DNA of 35,216 nt from a virus: the IMG/VR virus record IMGVR_UViG_3300033109_000080. The stretch is one strand, 5' to 3'. This document shows positions 4,160 through 34,940 of the stretch, one piece after another. The translations under genes were made by a program, and so were the position numbers. Within the stretch, counting starts at the first letter, position 1. Every line of letters begins with the position of its first letter. The notes under the pieces were generated by a model, which did not search any database, had not been told where the DNA came from, and saw only the letters and a list, made by a program, of their open reading frames with translations.

Positions 4160-4173
4160 CGAAGGGCTTTTGT

Positions 4174-4203
4174 CGGGTGAAAGCCTCGCGAGACGGTCCG
4201 GCC
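4174..4203 (+). promoter_or_regulatory. Conserved late-module leader element, copy 1 (CGGGTGAAAGCCTCGCGAGACGGTCCGGCC), abutting the protease ATG
   Basis: One of five copies; the others are at 9285, 16759, 32874 and 34911. It ends exactly at the ATG at 4204, and there is no Shine-Dalgarno sequence between them. Confidence 0.7.
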
Positions 4204-4890
4204 ATGACGATGGTCCGGCGCGAGCTCGCGGTCCTTCCGGTGGCGGCGGATGCCGCCGCGGCGAAGTCCCGGGTGCGCCGCTTCATCGCCAGCACCGACA
4301 CGCTCGACAGCCACAACAGCAAGATCAACCCCGACGGCTGGGAGCTCGAGCGCTTCAAGCGCAACCCGGTCATCCCGCTCTTCCACGCCTCGCGCGGGTT
4401 CCCGATCGGCAAGGGGCTCGACATCGGAGTCGTCGACCGCAAGCTGCAGCTCGGCATCGACTTCGCCCCGGCAGACGATCCGGTGGTGGGCGCGGACGCC
4501 GAGCAGGCGCTGCGCTGGATCGACCGCGGCGTGATGGCGGTCTCCGTCGGCTTCCACCCGCTCGAGGCCCAGGTCGCCGAGGATCGGTTGACCGGCGACC
4601 CGTGGGAAGATCTCTTCAACCCGCCCATCGACTACCTCCGGCAGGAGCTGCTCGAGGTGTCGATCGTCGCCATCGGCAGCAACCCCGACGCGTTGCCGCT
4701 GGGCCGCGAGCTGGTGGCCCGGGCCGCGCCGCGGACGCGGGTCGCCTGCGTCGCCGAGCTCGCGAAGCTCACCGCGGCCGCGGGCGAGCGCGTGCTGTCG
4801 CCAGACGAGCTGCGCCGGCTCGTCGCCGACGTCTTCAAGCAGTTGCGCGCCGATGCGGCGCGTCGCCGGGGCACCATCTCAGGAGGGTAA
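4204..4890 (+). CDS. Prohead maturation protease (HK97 / S78-U35 type)
   Basis: RRFIASTDTLDSHNSKINPDGW ... PLFHASRGFPIGKG ... GVMAVSVGFHPLE matches the layout of HK97-type prohead proteases. It lies immediately upstream of the major capsid gene. An alternative in-frame GTG is at 4177, inside the conserved element. Confidence 0.85.
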   Translation: MTMVRRELAVLPVAADAAAAKSRVRRFIASTDTLDSHNSKINPDGWELERFKRNPVIPLFHASRGFPIGKGLDIGVVDRKLQLGIDFAPADDPVVGADAEQALRWIDRGVMAVSVGFHPLEAQVAEDRLTGDPWEDLFNPPIDYLRQELLEVSIVAIGSNPDALPLGRELVARAAPRTRVACVAELAKLTAAAGERVLSPDELRRLVADVFKQLRADAARRRGTISGG

Positions 4891-4894
4891 CCAC

Positions 4895-6202
4895 GTGGAG
4901 ACCGTTTCCGTGAACATGACCGAGCTGAAGTCCATCATCCGCGACGCGGTCGCCGGCGAGATGAGCTCGCGCATGGAGGAGGCCACTGGCCGCGCGGTGA
5001 GCGAGGCCAAGAAGGCGGCGGCGGACCCGGCCGTGTTCCGCGAGATGCTGGACCGCGCGAAGGCCGCGGTCTCCACCACCGATCTCCCGCGCGCGACCGT
5101 CGACCGCACCACGCTGCAGGTCATCCACGATCCGCTCAAGGGCAAGGGCCTCAGTTTCGCCCGCTCCGTAAAGGCGATGGTGGTCGGCATCCTCGACCGC
5201 TGCTCGCCCGCCGACGTCGCCCGCGCCTGGGCGGCCAAGGGCTTCGCGCAGTACGAGGAGATCGCCGTCGCGCTCGACGCGCAGGCGCGCGCCTTCCTCA
5301 CCGGCGCCGCGGCGTCGGGCGGCACCCTCGTGCCCACGGCCCAGGCGGCCGAGGTCATCGAGCTGCTCTACCCGCGGACGGTCGCGCTCGTCTCCGGCGT
5401 CCGGACGATGGAGTTCACCGGCGCGGTCAACCTCGGCAAGATCAACAGCGGGGCGACCATCGGCTACACCGGTGAGGCCGGGCTGATGACGCCGAGCCAG
5501 CCGGGCACCGGCGAGCTGCGGATGTCGGGCAAGAAGGCGTACGGCCTGGTGCCCGTCTCGAACGAGATGCTCCGCAACCCGGCCGTGGGCGCCGACGCCC
5601 TCATCCGCGACGACCTGCTCAAGGCCCTCGCGGTCCGCCGCGACCTCAGCTTCTACCGCGGCGCCGGCAACACCTTCCAGCCGAAGGGCATGAAGGGCTG
5701 GATCAACAGCGCGAACTCGAACGCGATGACGGGCACGCCCACCGCCGCGACGAAGATCGCCGACCTGGTGAAGGCCATCGGCCTGGTCGACGGCGCCGAC
5801 GTGCAGCTCGATGAGTCGGCCGGCTTCGTCATGGCGCCCCGCACGCACTGGGCGCTCGTCGGCACCACCGACGCGAACTCGAACCTGCTCTTCGCGGCCA
5901 TGCTGGCGGCCGGGCAGCTCTTCGGCTTCATGTGCCGCCGGACCAGCTCGATCCCGACCAACCTCGGCGGGGGCACCGAGTCTGAGGTCTACTTCGGCTC
6001 GCACGGCGACGCGATCCTCGGCTTCGATCTCGCCAACCCGCTGCAGGTCGAGGCCTTCCCGAACGGGACGTACCACGACGGCTCCGCGCTCGTGTCGGGC
6101 ATCAGCACCGACATGACCCCCATCCGCATCCTCGAGGGCCACGACGTCGTGCTGCGGCACGACAAGGCCTTCGCGATGATCACCGGCGTCACCTGGGCCT
6201 AA
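4895..6202 (+). CDS. Major capsid protein (HK97 fold) with an N-terminal coiled-coil delta/scaffold region
   Basis: AGGAGGG at 4881-4887 lies 7 nt before the GTG at 4895. It encodes 435 aa after the protease, with a charged helical N-terminus followed by a Gly/Ala-rich body typical of HK97-family capsids. Confidence 0.9.
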   Translation: METVSVNMTELKSIIRDAVAGEMSSRMEEATGRAVSEAKKAAADPAVFREMLDRAKAAVSTTDLPRATVDRTTLQVIHDPLKGKGLSFARSVKAMVVGILDRCSPADVARAWAAKGFAQYEEIAVALDAQARAFLTGAAASGGTLVPTAQAAEVIELLYPRTVALVSGVRTMEFTGAVNLGKINSGATIGYTGEAGLMTPSQPGTGELRMSGKKAYGLVPVSNEMLRNPAVGADALIRDDLLKALAVRRDLSFYRGAGNTFQPKGMKGWINSANSNAMTGTPTAATKIADLVKAIGLVDGADVQLDESAGFVMAPRTHWALVGTTDANSNLLFAAMLAAGQLFGFMCRRTSSIPTNLGGGTESEVYFGSHGDAILGFDLANPLQVEAFPNGTYHDGSALVSGISTDMTPIRILEGHDVVLRHDKAFAMITGVTWA

Positions 6203-9172: not shown

Positions 9173-9190
9173 AGCGCAGCAGCACCACGT

Positions 9191-9231
9191 GCGCGCCTCG
9201 GGCGGGCGCGCGGGGCCACCGCCGGTGCCCC
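9191..9231 (+). terminator. Two tandem GC-rich hairpins in the 165-nt spacer before the major tail gene
   Basis: GCGCGCC (9191-9197) pairs with GGCGCGC (9205-9211). GGGGCCACC (9212-9220) pairs with GGTGCCCC (9224-9231) with one bulge. A T-containing stretch, ATTCTCCTTTCGTC, follows. Confidence 0.3.
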
Positions 9232-9284
9232 TGAAGAGGCGATTCTCCTTTCGTCGCGAACCGGCGGCATTCTCCGACTGGCCC

Positions 9285-9314
9285 CGGGTGAAAGCCTCGC
9301 GGGACGGTCCGGGC
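9285..9314 (+). promoter_or_regulatory. Conserved late-module leader element, copy 2 (CGGGTGAAAGCCTCGCGGGACGGTCCGGGC)
   Basis: Identical to copy 1 at 27 of 30 aligned positions. Lies 22 nt upstream of the major tail ATG, which also has its own SD, GAGGAGGA. Confidence 0.7.
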
Positions 9315-9336
9315 GTCTCCACGAGGAGGACGCCCA

Positions 9337-9759
9337 ATGTCCGTCGCCGCCCACACGATCAAGGTCTACACAAAGGCCACCTCCGCGACGCCCGGAGCTG
9401 GTGACGAGATCGACGGCATCAACGACACCACCTACAACGAGCTCGTCGCGCTCCTCGAGACGACCGACATCAAGGACAGCTCCGGGTGGCGCACGCGGAT
9501 GGCCGGCCTGGCCGACTCGAAGGTGTCGCTGGCTGGCGACTACGAGTCGGGCGACGCGCCGCAGGCCCTCCTCCGATCGAGCAAGCGGAGCGGGGCCACC
9601 GTCTACATCACGATCCACTTCGACCCGAATGCCAGCACGGGCCTCAAGGGCGTCCAGGTGCCGATGCTGGTCGAGTCCTTCGACGTGAAGGACTCTCTCG
9701 ACGGCAAGTCCGCCTTCAGCGCGAGCCTCGCGGGCAACGGCGCCGTCGTCGACGTCTGA
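9337..9759 (+). CDS. Major tail (tube) protein, TP901-1/phi13-like
   Basis: 140 aa with a strong SD. Sits upstream of the chaperone/frameshift/tape-measure trio. The sequence pattern (DTTYNELV..LETTDIKDSSGW..SLAGDYESGD) fits this tube family. Confidence 0.78.
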   Translation: MSVAAHTIKVYTKATSATPGAGDEIDGINDTTYNELVALLETTDIKDSSGWRTRMAGLADSKVSLAGDYESGDAPQALLRSSKRSGATVYITIHFDPNASTGLKGVQVPMLVESFDVKDSLDGKSAFSASLAGNGAVVDV

Positions 9760-14083: not shown

Positions 14084-16756
14084 GTGCGAGCCATCTCCGC
14101 TGCCCAGGCGCCCTACCTCGCCACGCCCGCGCGGAGCGCCCTCGCCAGGGTGCTGGTGAAGGACGCCGGCGGCACGTGGAGGGACTTGACGAGCTACCCG
14201 GGCTACGACGCCGTGAAGGCCGTTGAGTGGGGCGAGGACATCGACTCGAACGGCATGCAGGCCACCATCCGCCTCGTGCGCGCGATGGGGAATCGCAGCC
14301 TCGCGCCGCTCGTCTATGGTTCGCCTGTCAACAAAGGCTTCGCGCCGGCGGGGAGCTGGTCACCTGTGGTGTACCCGACGCGCGAGGTCAAGATCGACTG
14401 GACCCTCGTCGTCGCCGGCGCCCTCCCGCTCTCCCTGGGCACCGATCCGACGAACACCTGGGTCACCGGCTTCCATGGCTACATCGACCGGGTCGAGACC
14501 TCGCCGGACGAGGTGACGGTGCAGGCCCGAGGCCTCGAGGCGCGCCTGATGGCCCCGAAGGGCGTCTTTCGCCGGGAGAAGGTCTTCTCCTACGCCCAGG
14601 GCAGCGGCGCCAACTCGCGCGGAGTGCGCCTCTTCGAGGTCTCGACGGCCTACGTGTTGAACGAGCTCGTCGCGCCCTCGAGCGAGGCCCTCAACGACCA
14701 CTGGTACAAGGTCACCACCGCGGGCACCACCGCGGCGACGGAGCCCACCTGGCCCACCGGCTCAGGCAGCACCGTGACGAGCGGCACCTGCACCTTCACC
14801 GAGCAGGGCTCCGGGAGCGCGAGCGCAGGCACCGCGGTCGAAACGGTGATGCAGGCCCTCCTCGACGACGTGCTCGGCGCCGGCGTCGTGTCGCTGTCGA
14901 CTCCGAGCTCGCCGAGCTGGGCCGTCACCTGGTGGCTCCAGAAGCGGGTGCCTCTCTGGGACGCGCTCCGCATGCTCGCGGACCAGATCGGCTGGGATCT
15001 CCGCTACCGCTGGGACGCGGGCAGCTCGAGCTTCAAGCTCACCTTCGCGGCAGTCCCCCGCTCGAAGACGACCCCCGACTACACCTTCGCCCCGGGTGAG
15101 CAGCTCCAGCTCGAGCCGCTGGCTGTCGATGCGACGGGCATCCGCAACGTCGTGCAGGTCGTCTACTCCGACAACGCCGACCTCGACGCAGAGCACGTGG
15201 CGAAGCGCAAGACGGTGACGGTGAGCGACTCCGCGAGCATCGCGGACCTGGGCGAGCAGTGGATGGAGCTCGCCGAGGACTCGAGCTCGAACATCGGCAG
15301 CACGAGCGAGGCGACGGCGATGGCGAACGCCATCCTCTCGGATCTGGCGGCGCCGGCGGCGGAGTGGGGCGGCACCACCCTCTTCTTCCCCTGGGTCGAG
15401 CTCTCGGATCTGCTGCAGCTCGACCCGAGCAACGTCGCCGGGGAGTGGGTGGGGCTCACCGACGCCTCGCAGAAGCTGGCCGTCACCTCCTGGAAGCACG
15501 CCATCACCCAGACGACGGCCCGGACGAGCTTCGCCCTGCGAGGCAAGCCGGCCTCCGGGGCCAATCGCTGGCTCGGGCGCGACAGCTCGACCCTGCGACA
15601 GGACGACAACCACCAGCTTCAGACGCTCACCGCGGCGGCCGCGGCGAGCATCTCGGCCACCGAGGTAGTCGGCGGCACGCGGCTCTTCGAGGTGGGGAAC
15701 GGCATCGGCGGCCGCTCGAGGGAGCGGAAGACGGAGTGGCACGTCTCGGCGGCCTCGGGCTTCACCCCGGACTCGACGACTCTGCGGGGCCGCGGCTCGC
15801 ACTGCACCGTCGGCGACCTGATCCCGGGTGAGACCTACTACCTGCGGCGGGTCGGGGCCGAATCGAACTCGGAGCGGAAGGTCATCAGCCTGCCTTCCCC
15901 GCAGACCTCCTTCGTCGCCGGCCGTGCCTCGGCCGGGCACCTCAACAGCGACGTGATGGTCGGGCGGCTGCCGCTCAACGGTGGCTTCGAGACGCTCCTG
16001 CAGGCGGCGGCGGTGGGCCCTCCCGATCACTGGTCCGTTGTCGATGGGGCATGGAACGACGACCTGCAGGTCATCTCTGACGCCAACGGCCACAGCGGAG
16101 CGAACTGGCTGAAGTTCGTCGCGAAGACTCACGCGCAGTCGATCCACTCCGACTACTTCCATGTCGAAGCCGGCCACATCTACTCGCTGCGGGCATGGGG
16201 GAAGGGCGTCAGCGGCACCTCGAAGCTGCTCAACGTCGTGATCGAGTGGTTCACGAACGCCAAGGCCTCGGAGTCCACCAGCGCCACGCTCGTGCAGTTC
16301 GACTGCTCCACGACGACCTGGAGCGAGAAGCGCGCCTTCGTCACCGCCCCCTCGAGCGCGCGCTTCGGCCGGGCGAAGATCGCGAAGGCGACCGCGACCG
16401 ACGATGCCTCGTGGGGAATCGACTCGGTGGCTGTCGAGGACTGTGGAGAGGCCTTCATCGCCCCCACGCTCCTCAACTCGTGGCTCGACTACGGCTCGTC
16501 GAACGACCCCACCGGCTACCGGGGAGAGGCCGGCGGGAGGGTCCGCATTCGGGGCTGCGTGAAGTCCGGGACGGTCGGCGCCGGCACCCCGGTCTTCCAG
16601 TTGCCGGCCGCGTACCGCCCCGCCAAGAACAAGAGCTTCGACATCCCCACCGACACCGGGCGAGGCGTGCTCAACGTTCTCTCGGGCGGCAACGTGGAGA
16701 TCGCGAGCGGCGGCAACGGCTGGGCGTACATCGACTGCGCCTTCAACGTCTGGTGA
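14084..16756 (+). CDS. Tail tip / host-specificity (receptor-binding) protein with C-terminal carbohydrate-binding-like modules
   Basis: 890 aa and the last structural ORF. The segment NGGFETLL...HWSVVDGAWN...GANWLKFVA...YSLRAWGKG...IDSVAVED resembles CBM4/9-type jelly rolls. The final 100 aa or so (LLNSWLDYG...VRIRGCVKSG...FQLPAAYRP...) resemble fibre-tip knobs. Confidence 0.65.
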   Translation: MRAISAAQAPYLATPARSALARVLVKDAGGTWRDLTSYPGYDAVKAVEWGEDIDSNGMQATIRLVRAMGNRSLAPLVYGSPVNKGFAPAGSWSPVVYPTREVKIDWTLVVAGALPLSLGTDPTNTWVTGFHGYIDRVETSPDEVTVQARGLEARLMAPKGVFRREKVFSYAQGSGANSRGVRLFEVSTAYVLNELVAPSSEALNDHWYKVTTAGTTAATEPTWPTGSGSTVTSGTCTFTEQGSGSASAGTAVETVMQALLDDVLGAGVVSLSTPSSPSWAVTWWLQKRVPLWDALRMLADQIGWDLRYRWDAGSSSFKLTFAAVPRSKTTPDYTFAPGEQLQLEPLAVDATGIRNVVQVVYSDNADLDAEHVAKRKTVTVSDSASIADLGEQWMELAEDSSSNIGSTSEATAMANAILSDLAAPAAEWGGTTLFFPWVELSDLLQLDPSNVAGEWVGLTDASQKLAVTSWKHAITQTTARTSFALRGKPASGANRWLGRDSSTLRQDDNHQLQTLTAAAAASISATEVVGGTRLFEVGNGIGGRSRERKTEWHVSAASGFTPDSTTLRGRGSHCTVGDLIPGETYYLRRVGAESNSERKVISLPSPQTSFVAGRASAGHLNSDVMVGRLPLNGGFETLLQAAAVGPPDHWSVVDGAWNDDLQVISDANGHSGANWLKFVAKTHAQSIHSDYFHVEAGHIYSLRAWGKGVSGTSKLLNVVIEWFTNAKASESTSATLVQFDCSTTTWSEKRAFVTAPSSARFGRAKIAKATATDDASWGIDSVAVEDCGEAFIAPTLLNSWLDYGSSNDPTGYRGEAGGRVRIRGCVKSGTVGAGTPVFQLPAAYRPAKNKSFDIPTDTGRGVLNVLSGGNVEIASGGNGWAYIDCAFNVW

Positions 16757-16758
16757 GC

Positions 16759-16776
16759 CGGGTGAAAGCCTCGCGG
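16759..16776 (+). promoter_or_regulatory. Conserved late-module leader element, copy 3 (CGGGTGAAAGCCTCGCGG, 3' half diverged)
   Basis: Starts 3 nt after the fibre stop codon. The GTG start of the next ORF is 31 nt from the element start, with no SD. Confidence 0.6.
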
Positions 16777-16789
16777 CAGCCTCGCAGGC

Positions 16790-17065
16790 GTGCTGGCCAC
16801 CTTCCTCCTCGCGCAGATCAGCGGCACGGCCGAGGTCGCCGAGGGCCTCGCCCGGAATCCCCTCGCCTGGGGATGCGCGCTCGCCGGAGCCGCCGTCGCC
16901 TACCTCTTCAAGGCGCTGCTCGCCGAGCAGCGAGCGCACCTCGAGACGGTGCGAGCGGGTGCATCGCAGCAACGGGAGATCCTCCAGCAGATCGTGCCCC
17001 TGGCCTCGAAGCTGACGGAGGCCGTGGACACGCTCGAGCGCGTCACCGACAGGGAGGCTGCCTGA
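16790..17065 (+). CDS. Small membrane protein, holin candidate
   Basis: 91 aa with a hydrophobic stretch, NPLAWGCALAGAAVAYLFKALL, followed by a charged coiled tail. First gene after the tail fibre. Functional call is by position only. Confidence 0.35.
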   Translation: MLATFLLAQISGTAEVAEGLARNPLAWGCALAGAAVAYLFKALLAEQRAHLETVRAGASQQREILQQIVPLASKLTEAVDTLERVTDREAA

Positions 17066-19483: not shown

Positions 19484-19551
19484 CCGAGCAGCTTCAGCTC
19501 GAGCCAGTCGCCGAAGTCGTAGACGGCTGCGCAGCAGCGGCAGATCTTCAT
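19441..19551 (-). pseudogene. Open-ended zinc-ribbon-like ORF start (MKICRCCAAVYDFGDWLELKLLGYVGE...) lacking a nearby stop; probably a truncated gene remnant
   Basis: The ATG at 19551 overlaps the stop of the upstream minus-strand gene (ATGA). GC3 is high for about 30-37 codons, then the coding signal decays. This frame has no stop until 17470, and it overlaps the 3' end of the lipoprotein gene. Confidence 0.3.
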
Positions 19552-19889
19552 GCGGCCTCCAGCGGGATGACCTCGAGCTCGGCGATGGCGAAGATCTCGG
19601 TGTGCTCCGACCTCTCCCGCGCGGTCCGCTCGAGCGCGATGTAGCGGAACGGGAAGCCGGGCAGGCAGGGGATCTGCACGACGACCCCGCGGCGCCCCTG
19701 ATAGCGGTAGCCGGTCGGATCGCCCGAGTGCCGCCCTCGACGGACGACTCGCACCCGCGTGCCGATATCGAAGCCCAGCGCCGCGACGTTCGCCGCCCTC
19801 ACCGTCTCGCGCTCGGTGCACGCGCGGGTCGCCGCCGCATCCTGCTTGCCGACGTCGATTCCGCCCCAGAAAGGTCCCTTCGCCTTCAT
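19548..19889 (-). CDS. Hypothetical protein (113 aa), the only clear minus-strand gene; candidate lysogeny/immunity-side gene
   Basis: On the minus strand, SD GGGAGAGAAACC precedes the ATG at 19889. It is divergent from the RHH gene across an operator-like region. No DNA-binding motif recognised. Confidence 0.6.
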   Translation of the reverse strand: MKAKGPFWGGIDVGKQDAAATRACTERETVRAANVAALGFDIGTRVRVVRRGRHSGDPTGYRYQGRRGVVVQIPCLPGFPFRYIALERTARERSEHTEIFAIAELEVIPLEAA

Positions 19890-19935
19890 GGTTTCTCTCC
19901 CTCGGGCATCCCGAGAGAAATAATACACGGACTGC

Positions 19936-19970
19936 GTGCCGCTATGCACGTCTTTTGTGCTTGACAGCAC
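19936..19970. promoter_or_regulatory. Two operator-like palindromes GTGC-N6-GCAC (19936-19949 and 19957-19970), centres 21 bp apart
   Basis: Read directly: GTGCcgctatGCAC and GTGCttgacaGCAC. The second one brackets the -35 hexamer of the rightward promoter. Confidence 0.55.
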
Positions 19971-19989
19971 CGGACGCGTGGGCGAGTAT
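19961..19989 (+). promoter_or_regulatory. Candidate promoter TTGACA-N17-GAGTAT, 7 nt upstream of the ATG at 19997 (leaderless RHH mRNA)
   Basis: Perfect -35 hexamer, 17-nt spacer, -10 with 3 of 6 matches. On the opposite strand a TATTAT -10 (complement of 19920-19925) could serve the leftward gene. Confidence 0.45.
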
Positions 19990-19996
19990 CCGGCGC

Positions 19997-20398
19997 ATGT
20001 TGAGCGCAGCCACCGCATCGACTACGAGTGCAGCCGTCCCGACCATCAGGGCGGGCAGGAGGCTGCCGTTCGTGTCGAGGCGTCCGGGTCTGCGCGGTCG
20101 CGGTGCGAAGAGCCGTCTGAACATCACGCTGCCGAAACACCTCCTCGAAGAGGTGGACCGGCTGGTCGATGCTGAGGACGAGGCTTGGTCTCTGCGCGGA
20201 GGCTCGGCGAGCAGCTACGGCCGCAGCGACCTTCTCGAGATGTTCATCGAGTGGGCGATTCCTGAGTGGTACTCGCGCTACGGCGAGCTGCCGCAGAAGT
20301 CGGACCCGCGCCGCCGCGAGTTCATTCGTGGGCTGGCGGAGCAGCATCTCGCCGAGCTGCGCGACGACCTCTTGCGAGAGGTCAACAAGAAGGGCTGA
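19997..20398 (+). CDS. Ribbon-helix-helix (CopG/Arc/MetJ-type) transcriptional regulator
   Basis: SRLNITLPKHLLEEVDRLVD ... RSDLLEMFIEWAI forms a beta-strand/helix/helix RHH pattern. Start chosen at the ATG at 19997 because of the promoter geometry; the ORF track start at 19955 would lie inside the promoter. Confidence 0.65.
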   Translation: MLSAATASTTSAAVPTIRAGRRLPFVSRRPGLRGRGAKSRLNITLPKHLLEEVDRLVDAEDEAWSLRGGSASSYGRSDLLEMFIEWAIPEWYSRYGELPQKSDPRRREFIRGLAEQHLAELRDDLLREVNKKG

Positions 20399-23450: not shown

Positions 23451-24776
23451 ATGGCCCGCCTCTTCCATCGACCGGGTGACTCCACCTGGTGGCTCGACTT
23501 CACCGACGCGGCCGGGCGTCGGCGTCGCGTGAAGACGGACACCACTTCGAGGCGGGCCGCGGAAGATCTCCTCGCGGAGCTCCGCGCCAACCGCCGGCGG
23601 GAGTCCCTCGGCCTCGAGGCGACCACCAGCTCAGCGATCTCCACCGTCGCCCAGGCCTGGCGCCTCTGGCTCGAGCGGTGGTGCCCCGAGGCGTCCGCGC
23701 CCCGGGAGTGGCGCAGGTACCGGGCGAACATCGAGAAGTCCTGGTTCGGCCAGGAGCGCCTGACGCGCCTCACCGGTGAGCAGCTCGAGCGGTGGTTCGG
23801 CGAGAAGGTGAAGGCCGGCCAGGCGCCCCGCACCGTCAACGGCCACCGCACCATCCTGCGCCGGGTCGTCAACTGCCTCATCCAACGCCGGCTCTTCCGC
23901 GGCCTCAACCCGGTGCGCGAGACGAGGCCCCTGCAGGTCCCTGAGTACGCCTACCAGGTGCTCACCGAGGACGAGCTCCACCGCGTGCTGCCGCACCTGC
24001 CGGGCGAGTGGCGCGACGTCGTCGAGCTCGCCTTCACCGCGGGCCTGCGGCGAGGGGAGATCTACGCCCTCCGGAAGGACCGCGCCGTTCTGGACCTCGA
24101 GCGCGGCATCCTCACCCCGCGCGCGAGCAACGCCCGGCCGATGCCCAAAGGCCGCCGAATCCTCTCCATCCCCCTGACACCGGAGTCGCGGTCCGTGCTC
24201 GAGCGCGCCTGGGAGCGGACGCGTCCGGGCGAGCTGCTCTTCCCGGGCGTCGACGGGCAACTCCGGAGCGAGAACCTGAGGCCCTCGGAAGCCCTCAGGA
24301 GCGCGATGGGCCGCGCGGGGCTGGTCGAGGGCTGGCTGCACACCTGTCGGTGGCGCTGTGGGGTTCAGCAGCGTCACGATGACGAGCAGCAGCGTCGGTG
24401 CCCGAAGTGCGGGCGGCTGCTCTGGCCGAAGGCGCTCGTGCGGCGGGTGCGGTTCCACGACTTGAGGCACTCGACGGCCAACCACCTCCTCGACCGCGGG
24501 GTGCCGCTCGAGGACGTGCAGCTCTACTTGCGGCACTCCACCATCGCGATCACCGCCCACACCTACCGGCACCGCACCGTCGAGGCCCTGCGCAAGGCGG
24601 TCACCTCGCTGAGCCCTGAGCAGCTCGAGCGGCACCTCGACTCGCTCGCGCGCGGGCAGCCGGCGCACGTCCAGGCGCTCCTCCGAGAAACCGCCGCGAA
24701 ACTGGCACTTTTCAGGCACCAGCCCCTTGCACGAGGGGCCCTCAAACCAGCCAAATCCAACCGAAAGGCGAGGTAG
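23451..24776 (+). CDS. int: Tyrosine recombinase / phage integrase with an inserted CxxxC...CxxC zinc ribbon
   Basis: Catalytic signature AFTAGLRRGEI (Arg), FHDLRHSTAN (H-x-x-R), LRHS and AHTYRH (Tyr). The insertion is CRWRCGVQQRHDDEQQRRCPKCG. Lies adjacent to a tRNA-like sequence. Confidence 0.92.
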   Translation: MARLFHRPGDSTWWLDFTDAAGRRRRVKTDTTSRRAAEDLLAELRANRRRESLGLEATTSSAISTVAQAWRLWLERWCPEASAPREWRRYRANIEKSWFGQERLTRLTGEQLERWFGEKVKAGQAPRTVNGHRTILRRVVNCLIQRRLFRGLNPVRETRPLQVPEYAYQVLTEDELHRVLPHLPGEWRDVVELAFTAGLRRGEIYALRKDRAVLDLERGILTPRASNARPMPKGRRILSIPLTPESRSVLERAWERTRPGELLFPGVDGQLRSENLRPSEALRSAMGRAGLVEGWLHTCRWRCGVQQRHDDEQQRRCPKCGRLLWPKALVRRVRFHDLRHSTANHLLDRGVPLEDVQLYLRHSTIAITAHTYRHRTVEALRKAVTSLSPEQLERHLDSLARGQPAHVQALLRETAAKLALFRHQPLARGALKPAKSNRKAR

Positions 24777-24987: not shown

Positions 24988-25566
24988 GTGAGCCAGGCCT
25001 TCGCGGACCGGCTCAAGAAGTTCCCGCCGATGGGATGGCGGGTCCGAAAGCTCGTGCCGGGAGATCAGCCGCAGCTCGATGTCTCGAAAGGCGGACCGGC
25101 GGTGCTCGAGATCGACGGGATCGGCCTGGCGATTGGCGCGCACGATGCCTTGCTCTCGCTGATCGGCACCTGGGAGTGCTTCCGCGTCCTCGGCTGCATG
25201 CGCGATCTGATGATGGAGGCTCGTACCGTCGGGCGGTCGGAAGAGGTCCATGCGTTGCTGCTCGCGCTGATCACGAGCGGCTGCGAGGAGGCTGACCGGG
25301 CAATCCGTGAGGTGGAGGCCGGCATGCGTGCGGAGGAGTCGCGCGCGAAGGGCGAGGGCACGGCGAACTTCCCATGGGCGCTCTACGATCCGAAGGGCCG
25401 CATGCACTGCGCCGGCGCCGAGGACGGTGAGCCGACCTACGGCATGGCGTGGAGCGACTGTCTGGCGGCGATGCGGCTGGTCGCGCTCCGCGGCGCCAAG
25501 TCGATCGCGCGCATGGACGCGCTCGAGCGCAAGCGGCCCTCCGAGATCCGCTGGAGGGCCGCGTGA
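24988..25566 (+). CDS. Hypothetical protein (192 aa), first gene downstream of the putative attP
   Basis: GGGGG precedes the GTG at 24988, which is in frame with ORF 24925..25566. Lower GC than the structural genes. No motif recognised. Confidence 0.5.
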   Translation: MSQAFADRLKKFPPMGWRVRKLVPGDQPQLDVSKGGPAVLEIDGIGLAIGAHDALLSLIGTWECFRVLGCMRDLMMEARTVGRSEEVHALLLALITSGCEEADRAIREVEAGMRAEESRAKGEGTANFPWALYDPKGRMHCAGAEDGEPTYGMAWSDCLAAMRLVALRGAKSIARMDALERKRPSEIRWRAA

Positions 25567-27086
25567 CCAGGCTCCTCAGCGTCGACCTCTTCGCAGGAGG
25601 CGGCGGGGCCTCGCTGGGAATGAGCGAGGCCCTCGGCTCTCCGGTCGATGTCGCGATCAACCACTCGCGGACCGCGATCGCGGTCCATCGCGCCAACCAC
25701 CCGCAGACGAGGCACCTGACCACCGACATCTTCTCACCGGAAGCCAGGCCCAGCCTGGTGATCGGGAATCGCCGAGTGGGAGATCTCTGGGCGAGCCCCG
25801 ACTGCACCGATCACTCCAACGCGAAGGGAGGCGTGCCGAACCGAGAGGAGGGAAAGGACACCAGGTTCCTCGCGTGGGTCGTGGTCGACTGGGCGCGCGA
25901 GGTGCGGCCCGAGCGGATCTACCTCGAGAACGTGCCCGAGTTCGAGAAGTGGGGGCCGATCATCGAAGTGCAGGGCAAGCGCCGCCGCGATCCGGCCCGA
26001 CTGGGCCAGACCTTCAGGCAGTTCGTCGGCTCGCTCGAGCTGCTCGGCTACCAGGTGGAATGGCGCACGCTGACCGCCTGCGACTACGGCGCGCCGACGA
26101 AGCGGCGTCGGCTCTTCTTGATCGCCAGGTGCGACGGGCTGCCGATCCGGTGGCCCGAGCCAACACACGGGCCCGGCTTGTTGCCGTACCGGACGGCGGC
26201 CGAATGCATCGACTGGAGTATTCCCTGCCGCTCCATCTTCGGGCGGCGGCGGCCGCTCGCCGAGAAGACGATGTGGAGGATCGCGCAAGGGCTCCGTCGA
26301 TTCGTCTTCGAGAACCCAGAGCCCTTCATCATCCAGGTGAACCACGGCCGCTGGGAAGATCGCAGCGCGTCGATGCACCAGCCGCTCTCGACGGTCACCG
26401 CCAGTCGTCGAGGGCACGCCCTCGTCGCCCCCGTCCTGATTCACAGCGGGAATGGCGAGCGCACGGGCCAGCGCGCTCGGACGTACGACCTGCACGAGCC
26501 TCTCGGGACGGTGATGGCCACCGGCCAGAAACACGCCTTGGTGATGGCGTTCCTGGCGAAGCACTTCGGCGGAGTGGTGGGACAGGAGCTGCCCAGGCCG
26601 ATGGGCACGGTGACGGCACGCGACCACCACAGCCTCGCCGCGGTGACGCTGGTGAACTACCGCGGCACGGACGAAGAGCACCCGGGGTGCTCGGACGTCG
26701 GGGGGCCCCTGCCAACGATCACCGCGCGCGGCACCCATGTCGCCGAGGTTCGCGCCTTCCTCACCGCCTACTACGGCGAGGATCACGCGCCCGGGTGTGG
26801 GCAGCCCCTCACTGCGCCGATGCGGACGCTCACCGCTCGGCAGCGGTTGGGCCTGGTGACCGTCGACGGGATCGACAAGCAGATCTGCGACATCGGTCTC
26901 CGCATGCTGCGCGCGCACGAACTCAAGGCGGCGCAGTTCGGGCGCTTCGCCGCTGCCTACGACCTGAGCGCAGCGCGGACTCAGGAGGCCCAGGTGATGC
27001 TGATCGGGAACAGCGTTCCGCCCGAGGTCGCCCAAGCCGTCGTCAGGGCGAACACCTGCGGCCAGAGAACTCGGAGGGCTGCGTGA
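25563..27086 (+). CDS. DNA (cytosine-5)-methyltransferase
   Basis: Motif I DLFAGGGGASLG, motif IV SPDCTDHSNA (PC-type catalytic Cys), motif VI ENVPEF, motif VIII DYGAPTKRRRLFLIA, motif X LIGNSVPP. GTG at 25563 (GTGA overlap). Confidence 0.9.
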   Translation: MTRLLSVDLFAGGGGASLGMSEALGSPVDVAINHSRTAIAVHRANHPQTRHLTTDIFSPEARPSLVIGNRRVGDLWASPDCTDHSNAKGGVPNREEGKDTRFLAWVVVDWAREVRPERIYLENVPEFEKWGPIIEVQGKRRRDPARLGQTFRQFVGSLELLGYQVEWRTLTACDYGAPTKRRRLFLIARCDGLPIRWPEPTHGPGLLPYRTAAECIDWSIPCRSIFGRRRPLAEKTMWRIAQGLRRFVFENPEPFIIQVNHGRWEDRSASMHQPLSTVTASRRGHALVAPVLIHSGNGERTGQRARTYDLHEPLGTVMATGQKHALVMAFLAKHFGGVVGQELPRPMGTVTARDHHSLAAVTLVNYRGTDEEHPGCSDVGGPLPTITARGTHVAEVRAFLTAYYGEDHAPGCGQPLTAPMRTLTARQRLGLVTVDGIDKQICDIGLRMLRAHELKAAQFGRFAAAYDLSAARTQEAQVMLIGNSVPPEVAQAVVRANTCGQRTRRAA

Positions 27087-27736
27087 GCGCCGCCCCTCCG
27101 CTCTCGCGGCATGAGGCTCTGCGAGCGCTCCTCTCCGACGGTCTGCCACATACTCAGGCCGAGCTGCGGGCCGTCGCTGGCTGGCGCTACGGCGCGCGCG
27201 TCCAGGAACTGCGCGAGCAAGGCCTCGACGTGCGCTGTGAGCGCGTCGCGGGCAGCACCAACGCCTTCCTCTTCCGGCTCGCCTCTGGCGGGCCTTCGGC
27301 GTCGCCCCGCGAGTCCCCCTGCGCGGCCGGCGACGCCATTTCTACGATGAGCGCGGCGGGGACGCTGATACCCGCCCGGGGTGAGGAGGTCGCTTCTCCT
27401 GTCGTCTCCCCGGCCTTGGCTGGCACCACTGAGGAGCAGGTTGGATTCCCGCCGCTCGTCTCTTTGCCCGCGGTGCCCGACCTGCCCTCGCCGTGGGATG
27501 CGGTGTTCGCCGGCCGGGCCTACGCCGGCTCGGACGTGCGGCACACGACCTCAAGCCGCCGTCCGGGCGTCGATGTCGTCGGGACCGTGCGCCGGCGGCG
27601 CCGGCAGCTCGAGCGATGCCCAGCGTGCGGCGGGTTGACTTACCCGCTCGACGGAGCACCGCACGCGGTCCGTTGGACCGAGCGCGGCGGACAGCACGTG
27701 CGCGTCGACTGCATCGGGCGTGAGGTGCGTCGATGA
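27083..27736 (+). CDS. Hypothetical protein: N-terminal winged-helix-like segment, C-terminal CxxC zinc ribbon
   Basis: GTGA overlap. LPHTQAELRAVAGWRYGARVQELREQGLDV resembles wHTH modules. RCPACGGLTYPLDG lies near the C-terminus. Confidence 0.5.
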   Translation: MSAAPPLSRHEALRALLSDGLPHTQAELRAVAGWRYGARVQELREQGLDVRCERVAGSTNAFLFRLASGGPSASPRESPCAAGDAISTMSAAGTLIPARGEEVASPVVSPALAGTTEEQVGFPPLVSLPAVPDLPSPWDAVFAGRAYAGSDVRHTTSSRRPGVDVVGTVRRRRRQLERCPACGGLTYPLDGAPHAVRWTERGGQHVRVDCIGREVRR

Positions 27737-28122
27737 CGCCGCGGCAGGAGCAGCTGATCCCCATGTGGCACTTGCCCGCCATCTCCATAAGGCGAGCTCC
27801 GCCGACCGGCCCACACGAAACGATGGTGACGGCGTGCGGTCACCGAGGACCCATTCGAGCCCGGGAAGACGTCGGAACTCGGCCCGCGCAAGGGACGCTG
27901 ATCGCCGTGGAGGAGATGGTCTGCGAGACATGCCTGGTGATGTGGGACCAAGCAGAGGAAACAGGGAAGTTCTTGCTGCGTTGGGTCAGCGACTTCACGC
28001 CGGAGTGGCGCGGACCGGGCGCCATCCTCTTCGCTCAACAGCCACACGTACTCTGCGTGAAGTGCAACCGCGGCTATGAGCGCCGCGGGTATCGGCCCGT
28101 CGCCGTGGTGGTGCGTCCTTGA
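27733..28122 (+). CDS. Hypothetical Cys-rich protein (129 aa), lower GC
   Basis: ATGA overlap. Contains CETC...CVKC pairs. Codon usage is less GC-biased than in the neighbouring genes. Confidence 0.5.
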   Translation: MTPRQEQLIPMWHLPAISIRRAPPTGPHETMVTACGHRGPIRAREDVGTRPAQGTLIAVEEMVCETCLVMWDQAEETGKFLLRWVSDFTPEWRGPGAILFAQQPHVLCVKCNRGYERRGYRPVAVVVRP

Positions 28123-29097
28123 GCTCGACGCCCTTCACTCTCCTCGTCGGCGATGCCCGTACGCGGCTTCGCCAGCTCGCGGCCGAGTCGGTGCAGTGCT
28201 GCGTCACATCGCCTCCGTACTGGAGAATGCGCGACTACGGGCACCGGCGGCAGGTCGGCCTCGAGAAGTCGCCGGAGGCGTACGTTGCGCGGCTGGTGAC
28301 GGTCTTCGCCGAGGTGCGCCGCGTGCTGCGCTCGGACGGGACGCTCTGGCTCAACGTCGGCGACTCCTACGCGTGCTCGGGCAAAGGCTCGACCGGCAAG
28401 ACCTCCACTCTGACGAATCCCTCTCGCTACGAGGAGGCCTCGCTGCCGGGGCGCTCGAAGACGGGCGAGGGGCTCAAACGCAAGGACCTGGTGGGAATCC
28501 CCTGGATGCTCGCCTTCGCGCTGCGCACTGCTGGCTGGTACCTCCGCGCCGACATCATCTGGCACAAGCCGTCGCCGGTGCCCGAGTCGATTCTCGACCG
28601 GCCGACGAAGGCACACGAGCACGTCTTCCTCTTCTCACGACAGCCGCAGTACCTCTACCGCGCCGAGGCCATCGGCGAGGCCTTCCGAGAACCTCGCTAC
28701 GCCACCGCGGCGAGCATCGGGGCGAAGACCCGCGCTGTGGACCGCGAGTACCTGGAGCGGTCGACCCTCGCGCAACAGCCTCGGCGCGGTTGGGCGAACG
28801 CGCGCGATGTCTGGACGATCGCGACTGAGCCCTTCGCCGGCGCGCACTTCGCTCCGATGCCGACCGAGCTCGCGCGGCGGTGCATCGTCGCCGGAAGCGG
28901 GGGGGGGGCATCTCGTGCTCGACCCTTTCGCCGGTGCCGGCACGACCGGGCTGGTGGCGCTTCGCGAAGGGCGCCGGTTCCTTGGCATCGAACTGAACGC
29001 CGGCTACGCGCGCATCGCCCAGAAGCGCTGCCGAGAGATCACGCTCGGGTTGCCCCTCGACTCGTCCTCATCTGGAGAACTCCGTGACGCCGTGTAG
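28119..29097 (+). pseudogene. Beta-class N4-C/N6-A DNA methyltransferase (SPPY motif IV) interrupted by a +1 frameshift in a G10 tract
   Basis: The N-terminal frame (28119..) has TSPPYW, IIWHKPSPVPES, RPTKAHEHVFLFS and HFAPMPTELARRCIVAGS. Motif I, VLDPFAGAGTTG, continues in the +1 frame (ORF 28807..29097). The frames meet at GGGGGGGGGG (28899-28908); 9 or 12 Gs would restore one ORF. Confidence 0.8.
28899..28908 (+). repeat. Homopolymeric G10 tract at the methyltransferase frameshift point
   Basis: Counted directly from the sequence: gcGGGGGGGGGGca. Confidence 0.9.
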
Positions 29098-29335
29098 CCC
29101 GACGCTGCGGCAGCTCGACTACCTGAGGGCGATCGATCGCGCCTGGTTGGAGCTCGGCTACGCCCCGAGCATCCGCGAGCTCGGTGACACCCTCGGGATC
29201 GGCAGCACCAACGGCGTGGCCGAGGGGCTGAAGGCGCTCGAGCGCCGCGGCTTGGTGACAAAAGCGCGCGGGGTCGCCCGCAGCCTGCGGCTCACCACCC
29301 AGGGCCGGCTCTGGATCACGAAGGAGGCTACCTGA
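29084..29335 (+). CDS. LexA N-terminal DNA-binding-domain-only protein (winged helix; no S24 peptidase domain)
   Basis: LRQLDYLRAIDRAWLELGYAPSIRELGDTLGIGSTNGVAEGLKALERRGLVTKARGVARSLRLT matches the LexA_DNA_bind pattern (LT.rQ..vl.fI......GyPPsvREi......S...v..hL.aLe.kG.i.r....aR.i.l). Only 83 aa long. Confidence 0.75.
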   Translation: MTPCSPTLRQLDYLRAIDRAWLELGYAPSIRELGDTLGIGSTNGVAEGLKALERRGLVTKARGVARSLRLTTQGRLWITKEAT

Positions 29336-31260: not shown

Positions 31261-31688
31261 TCTCTCAGGCCCTGCGGGTGCGGATGGAGGCGCTCGAGGC
31301 GATCGCGTCGATGGACCCGCGCATCGTGCTGCGACTGCCGCTCCGCGTCGTCTCTCGAGGGAATGCGCGGTGGCATTGGGCTCGGCACGGCGAGCATTCG
31401 GCTCGGCACCGCCGGGCAGCGCATCTGGTGTGCCTCTCCCGCAGGGTCGAGCTGCGGCGGCTTCTCGCGCGAGGGCTCGTGGTGCGCGTCGTGCGGATCG
31501 CGCCGCGCTCCCTCGATACGCACGACAACCTCGGGACGGCCCTCAAGCCGATCGTGGATGGGGTCGCCGATGCGCTGGGCCTGGTTGATGACTCCGATGA
31601 GCGCGTGCGCTTCATCCCCGACGCCGAGCGAGGAGGCGTGCGCGAGGAGCTTGTGCGCCTCGAGTTCTACCCGCGGAGGGTCCGCTGA
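31257..31688 (+). CDS. rusA: RusA-like Holliday-junction resolvase
   Basis: RSLDTHDNLGTALKPIVDGVADALGLVDDSDERV parallels E. coli RusA [29 protein letters not shown] (D-x-D-N-L..K...D...DD). Start uncertain: GTG at 31257, or ATG at 31284 or 31311. Confidence 0.6.
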   Translation: MISQALRVRMEALEAIASMDPRIVLRLPLRVVSRGNARWHWARHGEHSARHRRAAHLVCLSRRVELRRLLARGLVVRVVRIAPRSLDTHDNLGTALKPIVDGVADALGLVDDSDERVRFIPDAERGGVREELVRLEFYPRRVR

Positions 31689-32767
31689 TGAACCTGGTCG
31701 ACGTCCTCGAGGGCCGCGCGCGCTGGGCGGTGCTCCATGGCGATTGCCGCGAGGGATTGCCGCTCCTTCCTTCGGGTTCGGTGGATGTTGCAGTGACCGA
31801 TCCGCCCTACAGCCATCACGTGCACTCGAAGCAGCGACGCATGCTGCGTGGGGGCGGTCGCCGCGGTGGTTCCGAGATCGGCTATGCGCCGCTCGGGTTC
31901 GAGGCGCTCGATGAGCAGACCCGCAGCCTGGTCGCGGGCCACCTGGGCAGGCTCGTACGACGCTGGTGCCTGGTGTTCAGCGACGCGGAGCACTGCTACC
32001 GCTGGCGCGAGGAGCTCGCCGATGCAGGCCTGCGACACGTGCGCGAGGGGGCCTGGGTCAAGCTCAACGGTCAGCCGCAGCTCTCGGGAGATCGGCCCGC
32101 CGTGGGTCACGAAGCCATCGAGATCGCGCACGGCCAGGTGAAGTGCCGATGGAGTGGAGGAGGCCTGCCAGCCCTCTGGGCGCACGCGATCGCGACCGAT
32201 CGCAACGGCACAGGCGCGCGGGTGCACACGACGCAGAAGCCGCTCGAGCTGATGCTGCGGTTGGTCGAGCAGTTCTCTGAGCCGGGCGAGCTCGTCCTCG
32301 ATCCGTTCGCCGGCGCCGGCACAACGGGCATTGCCTGCCTGCGACTCGGACGGAGGTACCTGGGCTGGGAGATCGACGAGCACTACGCCCAGGTCGCGCG
32401 AGAGCAGCTCCTCGCCGAGTCACGCGGTCTGACGATGCTCGAGGCGCGCGCCGGGCAGACGTCGCTCTGGGACTCGGAGCGGCCAGTACCAGAGCCGCCG
32501 CCGCAGCGTGAGTTCCTCGAGCGGCCCAACGGCCTGAGCTCAGACAAGATCCGCCGCATCGCCCAGCTCCGAGGTGAGGGGCTCTCACTTGCGGTGATCA
32601 GCGAGCGGCTCGGCGTCCACCCGAACACCGTGCACCGCCACCTGCAGCGCGCCGGGCTGGTGCGCAAGCGGTGGTGCTCGTGCGGTCGCCGGCTCAGGGG
32701 CGACGAGCCTCTCTGCTACACCTGCCGCGGCTACAGGCCGAACGGGCGCTTCGGCTTCGCGCGGTAG
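31688..32767 (+). CDS. Beta-class N6-adenine-type DNA methyltransferase (DPPY) fused to a C-terminal HTH and zinc ribbon
   Basis: VAVTDPPYSH (motif IV), HTTQKPLELM, LVLDPFAGAGTTG (motif I). The C-terminal extension contains IRRIAQLRGEGLSLAVISERLGVHPNTVHRHLQRAG and CSCG...CYTC. Confidence 0.85.
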   Translation: MNLVDVLEGRARWAVLHGDCREGLPLLPSGSVDVAVTDPPYSHHVHSKQRRMLRGGGRRGGSEIGYAPLGFEALDEQTRSLVAGHLGRLVRRWCLVFSDAEHCYRWREELADAGLRHVREGAWVKLNGQPQLSGDRPAVGHEAIEIAHGQVKCRWSGGGLPALWAHAIATDRNGTGARVHTTQKPLELMLRLVEQFSEPGELVLDPFAGAGTTGIACLRLGRRYLGWEIDEHYAQVAREQLLAESRGLTMLEARAGQTSLWDSERPVPEPPPQREFLERPNGLSSDKIRRIAQLRGEGLSLAVISERLGVHPNTVHRHLQRAGLVRKRWCSCGRRLRGDEPLCYTCRGYRPNGRFGFAR

Positions 32768-32873
32768 CCCCCGGGTCGATCCGCCCGCCGCGACCCCCCG
32801 GGGGTGGCCTTGTACCGATGGAACAAGCGCGCGGCACTGAAACCAGATTCCTCGGATCTCCGGGCCCCTCGAA

Positions 32874-32891
32874 GAGGTGAAAGCCTCGGCC
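32874..32891 (+). promoter_or_regulatory. Conserved late-module leader element, copy 4 (GAGGTGAAAGCCTCGGCC; most diverged)
   Basis: Shares the GGTGAAAGCCTCG core. Its GTG (32877) is the ORF-track start of terS. Confidence 0.55.
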
Positions 32892-33683
32892 CACCATGGA
32901 GCCGTGCCGCCGAAGGTCGCCAAGAAGCGCTGCGCGCGCTGCCGCAAGTCGAAGCCGGTGAAGGGCTGGCCGCCCAACGCCGCTCGAGCAGACGGCCTGG
33001 GCATCTACTGCCGCCAGTGCAAGCGCGAGGCGGACCGCGGCGCGCCGCCCCCGAAGCCCAGATGGAACCGGCCCGCGTCGAAGGCGCCTCCCGGTGGAGA
33101 CGCGCCGAAGCGCAAGCCCGGCCCGGCCTCGAAGCTCACGCCCGAGCTCGTCGAGCAACTCTGCGCCGTGCTGCGCAAGGGGCACACCTACCGCGCGGCG
33201 TGCGCGCGCTCGGGCATCGACGATCGGACCTTCCGCGACTGGATGGCCGAGGGCCTCGAGGCGCGCACCGGGCCGAAGTGGGGGCTCTACCTCGCGGTGC
33301 GAGAGGCCGAAGGCGAAGGCGAGGCCTCGCTGACCGACATCGTCCGGGACGCCGCGGAGATCGATCCGCAGTACGCGAAGTGGCTGCTCGAGCGCCGTCA
33401 CCCCGTCGACTGGGCGCGCAAGGAGCAGATCGCCGTCACCGGCGGCGAGGGCAAGGCCCTGGAGGTGTCGGTTGTCCGAGAGCTCATCAGCAAGCGGATC
33501 GACGGTCTCCTCGCGGCTCGCCCAGCAACTCCGCCGAGTGGAGGAGCAGGCGGTGCTGGCGGACCAGCTCCAGGAGGCGGGGCAGGCGCCGCCATTGCCG
33601 AAGGTGCTGCGACTCCACCACCGCCTGCAGCTCCTGACGCCGGCGGAGAAGCAGAACCTCCTGGAGGCGCTGAGCGAAGCTGA
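32877..33683 (+). CDS. terS: Terminase small subunit (N-terminal zinc ribbon, HTH, Gly/Ala/Pro-rich tail)
   Basis: Immediately upstream of terL. LTPELVEQLCAVLRKGHTYRAACARSGIDDRTFRDWM is a typical TerS HTH. CARC...CRQC lies at the N-terminus. Start is the GTG at 32877 or at 32904. The 3' end overlaps terL by 212 nt. Confidence 0.65.
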   Translation: MKASAHHGAVPPKVAKKRCARCRKSKPVKGWPPNAARADGLGIYCRQCKREADRGAPPPKPRWNRPASKAPPGGDAPKRKPGPASKLTPELVEQLCAVLRKGHTYRAACARSGIDDRTFRDWMAEGLEARTGPKWGLYLAVREAEGEGEASLTDIVRDAAEIDPQYAKWLLERRHPVDWARKEQIAVTGGEGKALEVSVVRELISKRIDGLLAARPATPPSGGAGGAGGPAPGGGAGAAIAEGAATPPPPAAPDAGGEAEPPGGAERS

Positions 33684-34917: not shown

Positions 34918-34940
34918 AAGCCTCGCGGTACGTCCGGGCC
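34911..34940 (+). promoter_or_regulatory. Conserved late-module leader element, copy 5 (CGGGTGAAAGCCTCGCGGTACGTCCGGGCC), abutting the portal ATG
   Basis: Contains the terL stop (GGG TGA) and ends exactly at the ATG at 34941. Same 30-nt geometry as copy 1. Confidence 0.7.

Follow-up and report, generated by a model that had tools for sequence, protein, structure and literature searches.

The 35,216-nucleotide viral sequence IMGVR_UViG_3300033109_000080 from IMG/VR (the window, by which we mean this whole stretch) carries a short repeated element in the gaps that head its gene blocks, one copy each before terS, the portal gene, the protease/capsid genes, the major tail gene and a small post-tail gene. 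Nearly the whole genome is read in one direction. Positions 1-239 are an exact duplicate of positions 34978-35216, and this 239-nt terminal duplication therefore marks the window as a circularly closed, complete genome of 34,977 bp, with the portal gene (34941 across the window end to 1502) spanning the junction. The window has 70% GC and no tRNA genes, and matches to PHROG families identify terS (in the frame 32877-33683), terL (33472-34917), the portal gene, a protease-like gene (4204-4890), the major capsid gene (4853-6202) and the major tail gene (9337-9759). Within it the 13-mer GGTGAAAGCCTCG has exactly five exact occurrences, all on the + strand, at 4176, 9287, 16761, 32876 and 34913. 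With up to two mismatches allowed the count rises to 10, against 1.25 ± 1.03 in dinucleotide-preserving shuffles (n = 100), none of which reached 10, and a repeat finder independently grouped copies 1, 2 and 5 as a 34-nt family. An earlier, sequence-only reading had reported five + strand copies, each before a gene block, and these counts bear it out. The copies and their parts are as follows.

4171-4203, + strand: copy 1, predicted late promoter of the protease-like and major capsid genes; box CGGGTGA at 4174-4180, hexamer GACGGT at 4192-4197, ATG at 4204, 6 nt past the hexamer, no Shine-Dalgarno sequence.
9282-9336, + strand: copy 2, predicted late promoter of the major tail gene; box at 9285-9291, hexamer GACGGT at 9303-9308, predicted transcript start at about 9315-9316, leader of about 21 nt with GAGGAGG at 9323-9329, ATG at 9337.
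16756-16789, + strand: copy 3, predicted late promoter of a 91-aa gene (16790-17065) lying behind an 890-aa tail gene; box at 16759-16765, hexamer CAGCCT at 16777-16782, GTG at 16790.
32871-32903, + strand: copy 4, predicted late promoter of terS and terL; degenerate box GAGGTGA at 32874-32880, hexamer CACCAT at 32892-32897, GTG at 32904.
34908-34940, + strand: copy 5, predicted late promoter of the portal gene; box at 34911-34917, with the terL stop codon TGA (34915-34917) inside it, hexamer TACGTC at 34929-34934, ATG at 34941.

The PHROG matches agree with four of the module labels given by the sequence-only reading (terS, portal, protease/capsid and major tail), whereas its "lysis block" behind copy 3 finds no confirmation, as neither the 91-aa gene, which has no family match in the Pfam and PHROG screen, nor its neighbors match a holin or lysin.

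To describe the element we aligned 48 copies from 12 genomes, this phage and eleven relatives (individual relatives and loci carry L numbers below), anchored on the box, with position 1 as the first G of GTGTGA. All eleven relatives carry the element at orthologous junctions, before terS, at terL/portal, at portal/protease and before the major tail gene; further copies head small genes without an assigned identity (L218 and L222 among them), and in the prophage of L214 (L218) one copy is followed 30 nt on by an open reading frame (ORF) with a hydrophobic N terminus. The columns of the alignment read as follows.

Positions -3 and -2: T-rich (28/48 and 30/48).
Position -1: C (45/48).
Positions 1-6: GTGTGA, near-invariant; G at position 2 and A at position 8 in each of the five window copies.
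Positions 7-17: spacer, often (A/G)(A/T)GCCTCGCGG, degenerate in several genomes.
Position 19: A (45/48).
Position 23: T (40/48).
Positions 20-22 and 24-29: any base (about 0.01-0.2 bit).

Leaving out three copies from L136, which had been found by a matrix that included these positions, A19 still stands at 42/45 and T23 at 37/45. The hexamer at positions 18-23 follows the box across an 11-bp gap, and the box is centered at about -28. Three of the four L136 copies have the hexamer TAGGGT, and those of L216, a relative with 57% GC, have CACCAT or CAATAT with TG ahead. Judged from the sequence, A19 and T23 are the A-11/T-7 signature of a sigma-70-family -10 hexamer, and their contrast with the unconserved neighboring columns reads as the signature of selection on exactly those two bases. 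Ahead of the hexamer, 36/48 copies carry G at position 16 and 8/48 carry T at position 15; CG stands here in the window copies, and L216 has TG in four of five. No TTGACA-like -35 hexamer lies 16-18 bp upstream of the copies' hexamer in a consensus scan of the window, the -35 position being merely T-rich. The element had been judged a misfit to sigma70, and this stands for the missing -35 hexamer but not for the 3' half, which holds a -10-type hexamer, nAnnnT; the rejection of sigma54 and extracytoplasmic function (ECF) spacing is upheld.

The element is strongly biased to the gene strand. A position weight matrix (PWM) gave 44 hits with a score of at least 12 on the gene strand and one on the opposite strand, and across loci of portal relatives further removed, amounting to about 0.8 Mb, the composite pattern was at background on both strands. 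Among 2.9 million IMG/VR viral contigs the 17-mer form of the motif, GTGTGMRTGCCTCGCGG, from which the window variant differs at two bases, matched only nine stretches; five of these come from two genomes of this family, and within each genome the copies lie on one strand. With a 14-mer, IMG/VR gave nothing beyond isolated chance matches, scattered one by one, and no copy is present in the roughly 1 kb of host flank available in L214. Three other identities were considered for the element and rejected. The TGTGA of the box recalls a CRP half-site, but it is wrongly placed for one and lacks a partner half-site. A GNRA-type mini-hairpin (GGU-GAAA-GCC) that can be drawn in the window copies is lost in relatives with GTGTGAAT or GTGTGATTC, and an arrangement in which a terminator precedes a restart rests on a weak terminator-like match at copy 5 only, at chance frequency.

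The distance from the element to the start of the gene is as constrained as the element itself. In 37/48 copies an ATG or GTG start codon lies at positions 30-33, that is, 6-9 nt past the hexamer T, the distance at which one would look for a transcript start. In the window, counted from the element's opening C, ATG 4204 and ATG 34941 lie at 30 nt and GTG 16790 at 31 nt, offsets that had been given correctly before; the accompanying claim that three copies adjoin starts is right for those three but too narrow, as GTG 32904 lies at offset 30 from copy 4, making four of five. The 11 copies without an adjoining start comprise those at the major tail gene and, in L136, two that head genes without an assigned identity; in all of them a leader with a GGAGG-type site precedes the start. 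At the major-tail junctions, of which copy 2 and its counterparts in relatives share the leadered layout, the Shine-Dalgarno-led start lies 45-55 nt from the element. The absence of a Shine-Dalgarno sequence at starts abutting the element, also proposed earlier, holds across the family: an SD-like motif precedes 3/17 called genes adjoining the element compared with 85/146 other genes at the same loci (Fisher p = 0.002). Since what is constant is a point about 30-31 nt past the box, which is followed either by a bare start or by an ordinary leader, that point would be a transcript start rather than a ribosome-positioning signal. The word "leader", under which the element had been introduced, is then probably inapt, as the element would lie upstream of the transcript start and not be transcribed.

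This geometry bears on which start codons are used. GTG 32904 is in frame with terS and matches the N termini of terS homologues, and is the likely terS start. The GTG within the element was rejected as a real start: at copies 2 and 3 it is not in frame, and the N termini of homologues contradict it. It is in frame in three of the five copies, by our own estimate close to chance. The public portal gene call P0001 (521 aa) nevertheless begins at the in-element GTG, 27 nt early, which adds the residues VKASRYVRA that are absent in homologues, whereas portal homologues begin MG..., matching ATG 34941. The repeat tends to draw gene callers to false starts, and the calls in L119 and L120 likewise begin at an ATG that lies within the box or shortly past it.

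A comparable layout is found at a site that lacks the element. The single + strand TTGACA of the window (19961-19966) is followed by a 17-bp spacer, the hexamer GAGTAT (19984-19989), 7 bp and ATG 19997, which opens a 133-aa ORF whose N-terminal part resembles, by eye only, a ribbon-helix-helix motif. A divergent gene on the - strand (19548-19889), with its own GGGAGAG ribosome site, faces it, and from this arrangement 19887-20398 is a probable early/immunity control region with the TTGACA site as its early promoter. Because this promoter has the same order of -10, 7 bp and start codon, leaderless starts appear normal for this phage.

Taken as a whole, the anatomy, conservation and geometry make it probable, in our view, that the five copies are factor-dependent late promoters without a -35 element, four of which would give leaderless mRNAs and the fifth, at the major tail gene, an mRNA with a short Shine-Dalgarno leader. 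Each copy would present, in order, a T-rich stretch, the box, the 11-bp spacer, a weak -10 hexamer, six or seven GC-rich bases and the transcript start. The host RNA polymerase would read the hexamer nAnnnT through a primary-type sigma factor, while the box, at about -31 to -25, would replace the -35 element as the site of a further specificity factor, one most likely encoded by the phage. Transcription is predicted to start with the A or G of the start codon or 1 nt earlier. The mRNAs for terS, portal, protease and the post-tail gene would therefore be leaderless and need no Shine-Dalgarno sequence, and the major-tail mRNA would have its leader of about 21 nt with a Shine-Dalgarno sequence of its own. 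A requirement for the factor would keep these genes silent in the lysogen and allow all virion modules to be switched on together, presumably late. Three options had been left side by side by the sequence-only reading: of these, a late promoter producing leaderless mRNAs is the one favored by comparison, a regulator site is compatible with it, a specificity factor probably being what binds the upstream box, and RNA processing finds no support in conserved structure.

Several points weigh against this interpretation. The argument for promoters is one of sequence logic throughout. The window hexamers are weak (GACGGT, CAGCCT, TACGTC), and the T of copy 5 stands one position early. The aligned copies are related by descent, and p-values such as the one above overstate their independence. 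GTG-initiated leaderless mRNAs, as copies 3 and 4 would give, are inefficient in Escherichia coli, and leaderless translation in Myxococcota, the likely host phylum (see below), is not documented in the literature searched. The candidate for the specificity factor that we describe below might just as well have a role in DNA packaging, at the cos region close by.

The same observations can be read in other ways. The fixed 30-31 nt to starts that lack a Shine-Dalgarno sequence would also suit a signal acting in RNA, on one long late transcript, as the site of an endonuclease cut or of Shine-Dalgarno-independent ribosome entry at an AUG or GUG about 30 nt downstream, and both the nearly unidirectional genome and the lack of strong terminators ahead of the copies fit such a transcript. 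We consider this quite improbable. As had been noted earlier, the element forms no consistent hairpin: RNAalifold finds 0 pairs in 34 copies, folding of the five window copies does not surpass that of shuffles (z of -1.2 to +0.55), and there is no Rfam match at gathering thresholds. Moreover, an nA...T pattern 6-7 nt ahead of the 5' end is predicted by a -10 hexamer and by no known RNase site, and the ordinary Shine-Dalgarno starts at the major-tail junctions indicate that the element is unneeded for ribosome entry there. If the element does act in DNA, box and hexamer might still form a complete promoter for an alternative sigma factor, of the host or the phage, that reads both across the 11-bp spacer with no separate activator. 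The motif is indeed bipartite, asymmetric and strictly spaced, the uniformity of the box within each genome suits a dedicated recognition protein, and the candidate factor matches Sigma70_r4_2 at threshold; we nonetheless judge this possibility improbable. The candidate is a single 50-residue domain without sigma region 2, and neither a sigma factor nor a phage RNA polymerase was recognized among the roughly 40 window ORFs screened against Pfam and PHROG, a screen that leaves out some small ORFs. An 809-aa ORF (25307-27736) that was considered as a phage RNA polymerase proved to be an artefact that runs over two genes, one of them for a methyltransferase (25449-27086). The hexamer resembles a primary-sigma -10 (TAGGGT, CACCAT, CAATAT). 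ECF factors need about 16-17 bp between a -35 that ends in AAC and a CGT -10, whereas GTGAA lies about 11 bp from a (C)GTC-like sequence and the lower-GC relatives have nAnnnT, not CGT. The window copies can be read as the sigma-54 (-24/-12) pattern GG-N10-GC, but most relatives have TG in place of the GG that sigma-54 requires (41/48 copies), which excludes it, and a second candidate (GGCAC...) fails in several copies.

Two further readings are less probable still. Asymmetric sites repeated in short gaps, all pointing one way relative to transcription, in a phage that is temperate (integrase at 23451-24776; integrated relatives), recall the stoperators of Cluster A mycobacteriophages, to which the prophage repressor binds, and here a repressor bound to the box would block late read-through in lysogens. 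Cluster A stoperators are repressor sites, about 20-35 in number, that occur also at the early promoter; they are not known to keep a set register with start codons or to have a -10 hexamer at a constant distance. The start-associated sequences of Cluster K phages likewise are short, asymmetric intergenic repeats in one orientation near gene starts, but their distance from the start codon is 3-8 bp and the ribosome-binding site is part of them, and neither class is known to have the -10 hexamer in fixed register that is found here. As this phage has only five sites, each heading a virion module, keeps strict register with start codons and the -10, and shows no PWM match in the 19.5-20.2 kb early/immunity region, we regard operator or stoperator sites as very unlikely. 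It is hardly credible that the copies are selfish or structural repeats (REP- or MITE-like, or recombination linkers) with no expression role. They do sit at module boundaries, and their spacers are more alike within than between genomes (0.64 versus 0.45), as gene conversion could give. However, they are neither palindromic nor able to form a hairpin, they occupy one strand only, orthologous junctions are kept with selection on exactly two -10 bases, and the 17-mer is as rare in viral contigs as described above. The same spacer excess does not reflect genome-specific co-evolution, an idea we rejected, but stems from the consensus of the family as a whole, ATGCCTCGCGG, which some genomes retain and which is degenerate in the rest.

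Comparison with known systems favors promoters of the factor-dependent kind, the nearest analogues being the MotA-box promoters of T4 and the leaderless late promoters of Thermus phages, of which the latter come closest in function. In T4 middle promoters, where AsiA and MotA appropriate sigma, a MotA box centered at -30 and 12 ± 1 bp from the -10 replaces the -35 element (PMC2988021). A phage box replacing the -35 beside a host-type -10 would be the shared feature, with a gap of 11 bp and a center at about -28 here; about half of T4 promoters have TGn, and here G is found at the equivalent position in 36/48 copies, with TG in L216. The box sequences are unlike, CGTGTGA or CGGGTGA here compared with (a/t)(a/t)(a/t)TGCTTtA, T4 requires a near-perfect -10 whereas the hexamers here are weak, T4 middle mRNAs are not characteristically leaderless, and MotA or AsiA homologues are absent from the Pfam and PHROG matches of the roughly 40 ORFs in the screen described above, some small ORFs lying outside it. 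Late promoters of the Thermus phage Lalka27a combine a TAGGGT -10 with a phage-specific conserved upstream base and give mostly leaderless transcripts, as in phiYS40 (bioRxiv 10.64898/2026.04.20.719267; PMC3594737), neither the middle nor the late promoters of P23-45 have a -35 (PMC3950348), and leaderless mRNAs are common in the phylum of the Thermus hosts (PMC12340547). The likeness extends to the missing -35, to TAGGGT itself, which is the hexamer of L136, and to most transcripts beginning at the A or G of the start codon, although in Thermus phages these features were mapped experimentally, while here they are predicted from sequence, in phages of a likely Myxococcota host and with a 7-bp box in place of a single base or TG. 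Phage Mu, a precedent for the organization, has four late promoters, Plys, PI, PP and Pmom, which stand at the head of one block each and all depend on a single small activator, C (PMC4461284). Common to both would be a small number of activator-dependent late promoters that head lysis, head or tail blocks and answer to one small phage helix-turn-helix (HTH) protein. The box here is asymmetric and lies at about -28, whereas the site for C in Mu has dyad symmetry and lies upstream of the -35 position, and Mu late mRNAs have leaders.

The box core is uniform within a genome, GGGTGA in 5/5 copies of the window, GTGTAA in 4/4 of L136 and GTGTGC in all copies of L217 and L220, which suggests a dedicated recognition protein evolving with its sites, although host differences could also explain it. 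A candidate lies directly upstream of copy 4, and the features concerned are these.

31688-32767, + strand: candidate factor, an N6/N4 DNA methyltransferase with a C-terminal HTH, directly upstream of copy 4.
About 32534-32659, + strand: HTH domain of the candidate (residues about 283-324), recognized by generic profile matches.

The profiles matched by this domain are Sigma70_r4_2 (at threshold), HTH_38 and HTH_23, with weak matches to the PHROG "late transcriptional activator" and terS families. In its recognition helix the window has HRH where relatives have VKY or TKY. In L214, L215 and L216 its homologues are separate proteins of 59-109 aa encoded directly upstream of terS, and the HTH gene of L216 is itself headed by the element, with an ATG at offset 30. 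On this evidence the HTH domain upstream of terS may be the factor that reads the box, a suggestion we make only tentatively. A bolder version, which we think unlikely, is that the HTH serves as a stand-in for sigma region 4, fused to a methyltransferase in this phage, and that the system is an independent, MotA-like takeover in which most virion mRNAs are leaderless and some of them GTG-initiated. An alternative candidate regulator is the 83-aa protein encoded at 29084-29335, which has a LexA-type winged-helix DNA-binding domain only and no protease domain, and which is kept in relatives (L214 1986-2312; L216 1621-1902).

Other features were seen around these genes. In three relatives the HTH gene has a canonical-looking promoter, (T/C)TCACA-N17-TAAGGT or TAAGCC (L214 7290-7345, L215 6815-6870, L228 about 9700-9740), and the -35 hexamer of this promoter corresponds to the late box core (TGTGAA) in reverse complement; in L228 both orientations together make up a palindrome, GTGTGAAC-N24-GTTCACAC. 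L216 has extra copies of the element (1713, about 6629 and 7237): one is upstream of a Dam methylase gene, another upstream of the HTH gene, and the copy inside the LexA-domain gene is followed by TACAAT and an in-frame ATG. Three independent contigs (L119 1-60, L120 1-70, L217 1-60) begin C(A/G)ATCTC...CGGAATTCC directly upstream of the terS copy, and the window has a related stretch, CAGATTCCTCGGATCTCC, in the same place (about 32800-32873); this shared contig start is probably the cos end of linear virion DNA. In the long gap before the major-tail copy (window 9173-9284; L119 10335-10442) there is a common stretch, GGGGCCACC..GGTGCCCCTGAAGAGG, and the sequence upstream of copy 2 gave no sign of conserved structure, folding no better than shuffles (z = -0.2 for the window and -0.8 for L119).

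The phage and its relatives appear to belong to one group. Portal homologues are many and 45-66% identical; they are found on contigs of 34-38 kb, in a Polyangiaceae metagenome-assembled genome (MAG) and in two prophages, one carried by an Archangium contig of 538 kb and the other by a metagenome contig of 328 kb. Because portal relatives occur in that MAG and in those two prophages, the host is most likely one of the Myxococcota and the phage temperate, the latter in keeping with its tyrosine integrase gene (23451-24776) and with relatives that are integrated prophages; as part of the late-promoter reading, we take it to be probably a siphovirus-like, temperate phage of a myxococcotal host. 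Relatives were gathered mostly through exact-protein look-ups. A portal-profile scan of GTDB genomes gave a single close relative, an Archangium MAG, and a scan of JGI metagenomes few close ones; no near-identity match was found in GenBank phages with 25 kb of the window, and no relatives in a capsid-based search of IMG/VR. The window has three DNA methyltransferase genes (25449-27086, 28119-29087 and 31688-32767), and in head-gene gaps of three relatives (L119 6366-6492, L121 6128-6288, L214 14571-14810) a tRNA-like sequence with a CAT anticodon loop, apparently a tRNA gene, can be seen by eye.

Neither the sequence-only reading nor the literature we searched offered a described element that matches, and the motif appears undescribed, in a phage family that is uncharacterized, although the kind of device is already known. 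Two annotations of the window should be corrected, the portal start to ATG 34941 and the terS start, best placed at GTG 32904, and the motif gives a simple signature with which to find and orient prophages of this family in metagenomes. The compact, 30-bp predicted factor-dependent promoter could also be an orthogonal expression part for myxobacteria. If the promoter reading is true, the five late promoters with their transcript starts and start codons would make up a testable regulatory map for a widespread family of uncultivated, temperate 35-38 kb Myxococcota phages and prophages, and leaderless mRNAs would serve for the translation of most of their virion genes, a mode of translation not studied so far in this phylum.

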